This document shows, piece by piece, positions 4,262 through 5,500 of a stretch of DNA of 20,976 nt. The number at the start of each line of letters is the position of its first letter. The stretch's first letter is position 1. The notes beneath the pieces were generated by a model. The model did no database searches, was not told where the DNA came from, and saw nothing but the letters and a program-made list of their open reading frames with translations. The DNA is from a virus (taxonomy: Duplodnaviria > Heunggongvirae > Uroviricota > Caudoviricetes), in the IMG/VR virus record IMGVR_UViG_2880378312_000001. One strand, 5' to 3'. The translations under genes were made by a program, and so were the position numbers.

Positions 4262-5500
4262 ATGACGATTGCGAAGGATAGTTCGACTGATGAAATCATT
4301 CATGGAAATGATCTCCGTGGAATGGATGATTTTTACATTAAGACAACGAGTTTTGAATGCCCATACGAGCCTTGTAAAATTAAAGCCACACCTTGTAGTT
4401 TTACTATGAAACATGTTAATCAATCATATTTCAGATATGGCGATAAACATAAGGATGGATGTGGTATTCATGATCCAAGATATAAAAACAATCATACTTC
4501 AAATGACGAAAGAAAACATAATTCGCCACCTGCTCCGGTTATATCACTTTTAAAAATTGATGTGAAACCAAGAGGTGGTGTTAAAAATGCCAGAAATATT
4601 AAAAATGAAAATCACAAGGATGAAAAAAAAGGTAATGAACATCCTGTATCTTCATCAAGTATTAAGCCCGTCGTTGACTATTACATAAATAATAGCAATC
4701 ATAATGAACAGCTATCAATCCCTCCATATGGCACGCGATCTTATAAAGATACATTTCAACTTATTTTTTACAAAAACAACATACGTTATTACAAACCTGC
4801 TATTTATTATGGTGTAGCCCAGTCTAATATTCGTCTGCATGAAGATTCAGATAAACATTGTATTACTTTCCTCGCAAGGGATAAGAAAACCCAAAAACCA
4901 TTTACGCTTGAAATTGATGTTTCTGACTGGAATAAAAGTCAGAAGGATGTGTTTTGGAAGGAATATGAAAAGCAAAGGAAGGAAGCTGATAGGTATTATA
5001 AGGGGCTTAAAGATAAAAGGAATGCTAAAAAATACTTGACGGTTTTCTTTTTTGGGATGCCGGATGAAAATGATAAGTTTCTATTTAAGACAAACCACTT
5101 TAAATTAGTATATGTGGCTTTCTTGGGTAAATTTGAAAGCTCATATAATGATAGTAATTATTACATTGAAAATGATCTGTCTGTATCATCATTGAATGAA
5201 CAACCCATTTCATTATCTGATATAGACCATAAAAATCATGAATATAATATTGAAACTTCATTAGATTTTAGTTCTCCTTTGCCAGAGCCAGAGCCAGAGC
5301 CAGAGCCAGAGCCAGAGCCAGAGCCAGAGCCAGAGCCAGAGCCAGAGCCAGAGCCAGAGCCAGAGCCAGAGCCAGAGCCAGAGCCAGAGCCAGAGCCAGA
5401 GCCAATAAGATCCTCTTTAAAGGAAAATACTGAGACTGTAGAAATGAACAGTAAAGTTTGGGGGAGGCTGAAAAAGATAATCACTTTCTTTAAAAAGTGA
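4262..5500 (+). CDS. Hypothetical 412-aa protein with N-terminal Cys cluster and C-terminal (PE)20 repeat
   Basis: Uninterrupted ORF in the AT-rich block. Cys pattern [13 protein letters not shown]...C (possible zinc ribbon), Lys-rich central region, then L-(PE)20-PI. No recognised family. Confidence 0.5.
5282..5401 (+). repeat. Perfect hexanucleotide tandem repeat (CCAGAG)x20, encoding (Pro-Glu)20
   Basis: 120 bp of exact 6-bp units read directly; in frame within the 4262..5500 ORF. Reverse strand reads as (GS)n, which is an artefact. Confidence 0.95.

Follow-up and report, generated by a model that had tools for sequence, protein, structure and literature searches.

The hypervariable typing locus O157-10 of Escherichia coli O157:H7 encodes a probably length-tolerant spacer of an Avs8B-like protein

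The stretch of DNA that was analyzed in this study (20,976 nucleotides, hereafter called the window) carries at positions 5282-5401 a perfect hexanucleotide repeat, and this array is the Escherichia coli O157:H7 VNTR known as O157-10, TR2 or Vhec1. The overall explanation we favor, which we consider quite probable, is that the array is a slippage-driven in-frame VNTR and that it occupies a spacer, a putative function, whose length is well tolerated by an Avs8B-like protein of a mobile element.

Direct reading of the sequence and a regular expression count indicated 20 uninterrupted CCAGAG units (120 bp) on the plus strand, and Tandem Repeats Finder called a period-6 repeat at 5281-5404 with 20.7 copies, 100% matches, 0 indels and a score of 248. 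The array is flanked by ...CCTTTG on its 5' side and by CCAATA... on its 3' side, and such a perfect 120-bp periodicity inside a 21-kb window is beyond chance. It is in frame with an intact coding sequence of 412 amino acids (positions 4262..5500, plus strand; hereafter called the host gene), which corresponds to ECs_3507 of strain Sakai, where it is annotated as 'hypothetical protein'. Within this frame, the array codes for (Pro-Glu)20 (residues 341-380), which is followed by one extra Pro. Thus, the initial annotation, which had described a perfect (CCAGAG)x20 repeat with a (Pro-Glu)20 tract, was correct. All Glu codons of the array are GAG, while the remainder of the host gene uses GAA and GAG at a ratio of 20 : 2, and the G+C content of the array is 67% compared with 32% for the host gene. 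These data indicate that the array represents one amplified DNA unit and not a composition selected at the protein level. An 82-aa open reading frame on the opposite strand (5236..5484, minus), which encodes (Gly-Ser)n, is a mechanical consequence of the array and was not accepted as a gene; the conserved domain and the tail sit in the plus frame.

The two published TR2 MLVA primers each match the window exactly and only once, on either side of the array. The binding site of GGAAGGAAGCTGATAGGT is at 4977..4994 (plus strand) and that of CGCAGTTGATACCTACGG at 5521..5538 (minus strand), both primers being taken from PMC2246123. The TR2 unit given in Table 2 of that paper is TGGCTC, and rotation of this hexamer followed by reverse complementation yields CCAGAG. 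Since primers and unit match exactly, the array corresponds to a VNTR that had been described before in E. coli O157:H7, and its identity and hypervariability are virtually certain. TR2 (Noller 2003), Vhec1 (Lindstedt 2003) and O157-10 are synonyms according to Table 1 of PMC3768571; this MLVA locus shares with our array the unit, the primers, the position in prophage Sp17 and the hypervariability, and at the DNA level there is no difference between the two. Among seven loci, TR2 had the highest diversity index (92.2%) in PMC2246123. The DNA feature as such therefore adds nothing new: although overly variable, it has been in standard use for typing outbreaks since 2003, and published work has already measured how fast it mutates. 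The encoded protein is discussed neither in the O157 typing literature nor in the Avs8 literature, as far as the consulted parts of these publications go.

The host gene was found in 310 of 5,426 complete E. coli genomes, nearly all of them O157:H7 or O55:H7 with some O121, and its location was always chromosomal. Between strains, the matched span changes solely in multiples of 6 bp. Among the 74 complete genomes with full-length spans in the match tables, a sample that follows the match ranking and is not random, the copy number ranged from 8 to 52, with 31 alleles and no dominant length. When we counted perfect copies by regular expression in eight sequences (the window and the fetched loci), we obtained 8 copies for H52_982342, 19 for O55:H7 DEC5A, 20 for the window, 21 for O121 GTVSS-020, 24 for Sakai, 25 for strain 138, 40 for EC4115 and 52 for strain 472. 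Even genomes that are just 14 bp apart in size are not identical at this site (15 copies in FRIK2455 and FRIK2069, 16 in FRIK2533). Slipped-strand mispairing during replication is the accepted mechanism by which such arrays change their length. We had suspected recent expansion or ongoing slippage from the perfection of the repeat, and both the spread of 8-52 copies in the 74 genomes and published passage experiments bear this out. In parallel serial passages, O157-10 mutated at a rate of 1.3-4.8 x 10−4 mutations per generation per strain, the highest value of any O157 locus in that work; 41 of 57 VNTR mutations (72%) fell in this locus, whole units were both gained and lost, and PulseNet MLVA dropped O157-10 because it was too variable (PMC3777172). 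Thus, copy number differs across strains instead of being identical, and active length change within cultures is already on record in these passages.

A second perfect hexamer VNTR, (TATTTC)x9.8, is located at 6746-6804 of the window between an IS30 remnant and an HNH endonuclease gene, in an apparently intergenic position. Exact matches of the published TR1 primers were located at 6597-6616 (plus) and 6877-6896 (minus), and this array is thus the MLVA locus TR1, also called Vhec4 or O157-9 (unit AAATAG). In the window and five fetched loci, all six of them O157-type, it comprises 9-12 copies, and O55:H7 DEC5A and O121 lack it. The two classic O157 typing loci are about 1.35 kb apart in the window, measured from array to array.

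In the listed matching records, and likewise in each of the fetched strain loci, the host gene has an intact coding sequence, and comparison with orthologues yielded dN/dS values of 0.08-0.19 for the N-terminal domain. These values indicate a functional gene under purifying selection. The first 310 or so residues (4262..5191, plus strand) make up a globular domain that belongs to the PD-lambda-4_B (Avs8B) family and contains invariant cysteines (Cys33, Cys38, Cys67) and an OB-like beta-barrel. In PADLOC, residues 151-284 matched PD-Lambda-4_B with E=1.7e-7. A library-wide phmmer search with residues 1-340 retrieved 66 cluster representatives, and the same profile was matched by 53 of 55 aligned relatives (best E=2.2e-92). 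On the basis of the PADLOC match and of these relatives, we assign the N-terminal domain of about 300 residues to the Avs8B family. The AlphaFold2 model (mean pLDDT 79.7) predicted a confident mixed alpha/beta domain for residues 1-310, in which beta strands and short helices make up the N-terminus (pLDDT 87-96). A fold search against the PDB yielded weak OB-fold similarity, and because these matches are weak, a function cannot be assigned from the structure; judged from the model, the domain with its cysteine cluster and OB-like barrel is possibly nucleic-acid binding. No family in Pfam or NCBIfam scored above its cutoff for the host protein, and the sub-threshold matches over the tract and its immediate flanks are compositional. 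The best Pfam match, Trypan_PARP/procyclin (PF05887; 42 bits vs a cutoff of 100 bits), was rejected for this reason: the EP repeats of trypanosome procyclin share the (Glu-Pro)n composition with the tract, but the likeness is purely compositional. The phage collection searched with the host gene gave no match.

Downstream of the tract, 32 residues remain. Residues 399-411 (5456..5494, plus strand) were modelled by AlphaFold2 as a basic amphipathic helix, a putative membrane-targeting sequence; the last 14 residues have a hydrophobic moment of 0.55, which ranks 2nd among 399 windows of this kind, and a net charge of +5. When we inspected the long family members, we found the same order of domain, low-complexity linker (34-148 aa) and basic amphipathic tail in 21 of 21, even at 20-30% identity. 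All 21 tails were net positive and the median tail moment was within the top 1% of windows. Examples of such tails are ...LVRRLWRWLFKR, ...WVLKRLFGK and ...SLFSKLKNFFKN, and a paralogue with a VAE repeat carries the homologous tail ...IWTGIRKLISFFKK. The linker was net negative in 12 of the 21 long members; it is acidic in the enterobacterial members and not family-wide. Frame and tail downstream of the tract are kept in every orthologue across genera, and the tract was modelled as extended coil (pLDDT 71-75) between the domain (1-310) and the terminal helix (399-411). Both observations agree with the earlier suggestion of a length-variable linker. Taken together, we are rather confident that the protein has a three-part architecture consisting of an Avs8B-family domain, a linker and a basic amphipathic helix.

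MinD and FtsA carry C-terminal amphipathic membrane-targeting helices, which are joined to the protein by a flexible linker. The host protein shares with them a short basic amphipathic C-terminal helix after an unstructured linker, and the motifs are similar (...WVLKRLFGK, ...GLWGKLFG), but there is no homology to either protein and membrane binding of the host protein is putative. To our knowledge, no membrane-targeting linker is known as a hypermutable VNTR. The N-terminus of the host protein is hydrophilic and lacks a signal peptide, a hydrophobic segment and a transmembrane helix. As far as the sequence goes, the chances that the C-terminal helix acts as a membrane tether are about even, and by analogy the protein is probably cytoplasmic and tethered to the inner membrane via its tail, with the tract as tether.

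What occupies the linker site varies considerably among the relatives. We found (PE)5 in Xenorhabdus bovienii (unit CCAGAG) and in Enterobacter genomosp. O, (PE)10 followed by PGPE in Pantoea sp. GD03673, (PE)2 in Yersinia enterocolitica, and CCTGAG-encoded (PE)3 and (PE)9 in Pantoea ananatis and Erwinia sp. S63, respectively. Pantoea dispersa (S68; locus L023, 3001-4278) carries (QE)21+ with the unit CAAGAG. This unit is CCAGAG with one base changed, and the change has spread over nearly the whole array (>21 copies, one QG interruption), which makes the transition from PE to QE a clear case of array turnover and homogenization. The paralogue mentioned above (about 60% protein identity) occurs in about 254 other complete E. 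coli genomes as well as in Citrobacter, Klebsiella and E. albertii, and its linker site is filled with a perfect 9-bp array, (GTTGCTGAG)n, which encodes (VAE)n. In six E. coli genomes, this array comprised 12, 25, 35, 38, 51 and 60 copies. The loci with the (VAE)n paralogue are L011-L016 (E. coli), L010 (Citrobacter) and L024 (E. albertii). Draft assemblies of Providencia rettgeri, Enterobacter cloacae, Klebsiella aerogenes and Xenorhabdus littoralis (L017, L018, L019, L022) end exactly at the linker, and many database proteins are designated 'partial' and stop there because short-read assemblies break at this site. Proline is thus dispensable, and what the family conserves is not a rigid rod of the TonB type. 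It is apparently a spacer free of constraint, with an acidic character in enterobacterial members, which is followed by the tail.

In strain Sakai, ECs_3507 lies inside the annotated lambda-like prophage Sp17. Genes for two tyrosine recombinases lie upstream of the host gene, together with a third large gene for a 'DNA-binding protein' and two small open reading frames, and downstream a convergent gene for a BamE-domain lipoprotein is located (window 5576-5971, minus strand). In O55:H7 DEC5A and in Pantoea ananatis, the element extends to a relaxase. The upstream recombinases and this relaxase indicate that a mobilizable integrative element carries the host gene as cargo. An IS30 remnant interrupts the O157 copy of this element, which borders on lambdoid genes encoding an HNH endonuclease, NinG and Q. 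The IS30 transposase remnant (window 5914-6669, minus strand) marks the truncation, and O55:H7 DEC5A has the relaxase gene at this place (L006, 4680-6924), which indicates that the element predates the O55-to-O157 transition and decayed later. A 14-bp tandem duplication (AAATGGTATGGATG x2 at 2531-2558) frameshifts the gene for the 'DNA-binding protein' relative to Sakai (543 aa when intact), and RefSeq labels this gene 'frameshifted' in strain 138 as well. Between the host gene and the convergent BamE-domain lipoprotein gene, a G+C-rich hairpin with T-runs on both strands was detected at 5518..5542 (−17.1 kcal/mol, z = −2.96). This hairpin is likely to be a terminator common to both genes; it was not listed by the consensus terminator scan, but folding supports it. 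A BamE-domain lipoprotein gene is also paired with a family member in Xenorhabdus bovienii (L008, 10714-11016), and because the pairing recurs, both genes may move as a unit.

The Avs8 anti-phage operon, which encodes a STAND NTPase, has Avs8B as its second gene; Avs8B has no recognizable homology and is dispensable for defence against lambda (bioRxiv 10.1101/2025.07.02.662641). It is homologous to the N-terminal domain of about 300 residues of the host protein; the PD-Lambda-4_B profile, however, has 303 positions, which is about the size of the domain alone. Avs8B adjoins Avs8A, a STAND NTPase, whereas the host gene has no such neighbor: small hypothetical proteins, tyrosine recombinases and the BamE-domain lipoprotein are encoded around it, and we found no Avs8A STAND NTPase with nuclease domain beside it and no PADLOC match to PD-Lambda-4_A. 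For this reason, we regard the host protein as a domain homologue and not as an Avs8 system. Moreover, the Avs8B-family domain offers no functional handle, since Avs8B is the only relative that has been studied and its participation in lambda defence could not be detected (bioRxiv 10.1101/2025.07.02.662641). Other family members adjoin an OLD-type ATPase-nuclease (Citrobacter, Klebsiella) or the Qat anti-phage system (E. coli, VAE paralogue), and these neighbors hint at an association with defence islands.

These observations can be combined in the following mechanism. At the DNA level, a perfect 6-bp microsatellite gains and loses whole units, for which slipped-strand mispairing is the accepted mechanism, and since the unit equals two codons, every change in copy number is in frame. 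At the protein level, the tract is the spacer of a three-part, probably cytoplasmic protein encoded on a mobilizable element with tandem tyrosine recombinases; less decayed copies of this element encode a relaxase and the O157 copy is embedded in prophage Sp17. A short ancestral PEPEP seed would have expanded through slippage, which was possible because the length, and even the sequence, of the linker is hardly constrained across the family. The array now drifts in length at about 1 x 10−4 per generation, most likely with little or no functional consequence. We consider it likely that the length variation is near-neutral. This conclusion is based on the flat and broad allele spectrum, on the wide natural range of linker lengths and on null alleles and whole-array deletions, which are viable according to published work.

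Several other explanations were weighed against this mechanism. From the alternating Pro-Glu motif, the initial annotation had proposed a resemblance to the rigid spacer of TonB-type proteins, which would make the tract a stiff rod that spans a compartment and transmits energy or reaches a partner. The resemblance holds for the composition and for a presumed extended conformation: TonB has an alternating Pro-Glu stretch in its proline-rich spacer, AlphaFold2 modelled the tract as extended coil, and compositional TonB matches cover the tract and its immediate flanks. It does not hold for family membership, domains and the requirement of a rigid rod. Both scores were far below the curated cutoffs (Pfam TonB_N, 16.4 bits vs 33, E=0.015; NCBIfam TonB, 32.5 bits vs 315, E=7.6e-8), and Pfam gave no TonB_C match at E<=1 in the host protein. 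TonB is anchored by an N-terminal transmembrane helix, whereas the putative anchor of the host protein, its C-terminal amphipathic helix, is at the opposite end; the N-terminus folds as beta strands in the model and lacks signal peptide and transmembrane anchor. There is no Lys-Pro segment, the protein is probably cytoplasmic, and proline is replaced at the same site by (QE)n in Pantoea dispersa and by (VAE)n in the paralogue. Membership in the TonB family was therefore rejected, and a rigid spacer of this type is hardly credible. Nearly as improbable is a contingency switch for on/off phase variation, or a dead gene whose repeat is meaningless at the protein level. A hypermutable simple repeat in a gene on a decaying mobile element, next to an IS30 remnant and a frameshifted gene, is what one would see in such cases, but a 6-bp unit cannot shift the frame. 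The unit is located within the coding sequence, all alleles are in frame, and the coding sequence is intact in the strains examined. A dead gene is at variance with the intact coding sequences, with the dN/dS of the flanking domain and with the in-frame conservation of the tail beyond the repeat across genera. Thus, our tests contradict a TonB-like function as well as an on/off switch and a dead gene.

The main rival to a near-neutral spacer is an adaptive 'tuning knob', in which the tract is selected because tether length sets the reach of the Avs8B-like domain from the membrane, so that a population would contain a range of functional variants to counter phages or other mobile elements. This is unlikely, and what keeps it alive, at a low probability, is that hypervariable arrays from different DNA units (CCAGAG, CCTGAG, CAAGAG and the 9-bp GTTGCTGAG) are present at one linker site. 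Such repeat arrays in several lineages could mean that variability is selected. The location of family members near defence genes (Avs8A STAND NTPase; OLD-type ATPase-nuclease in Citrobacter and Klebsiella; Qat in E. coli) and the very high mutation rate given in PMC3777172 point in the same direction. However, the alleles of 8-52 copies are broadly spread and have no preferred length, as drift predicts, and published null alleles and whole-array deletions are viable. Repeat-free linkers already range from 34 to 148 aa across the family, which fits tolerance, and a conserved PEPEP seed together with slippage accounts for the recurrence in the PE lineage without selection. A more far-reaching version, according to which Avs8B-like proteins would be membrane-tethered nucleic-acid-binding factors, whose tethers in Enterobacterales have repeatedly been captured by in-frame VNTRs (6-bp PE/QE, 9-bp VAE) with length selected to vary, appears quite doubtful. 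If it were true, an immunity-associated protein would possess a contingency locus of the graded 'tuning knob' type, with a heritable and fast-diversifying tether length, and the array would not be a neutral typing marker.

Under the explanation we prefer, a slippage array in a length-tolerant spacer, the added value of this analysis is modest and concerns the protein level: a long-used typing marker lies in the linker of a conserved, Avs8B-related protein with three parts, and a second VNTR occupies the same site in a paralogue. This 9-bp (VAE)n VNTR could serve as a typing locus in non-O157 E. coli.
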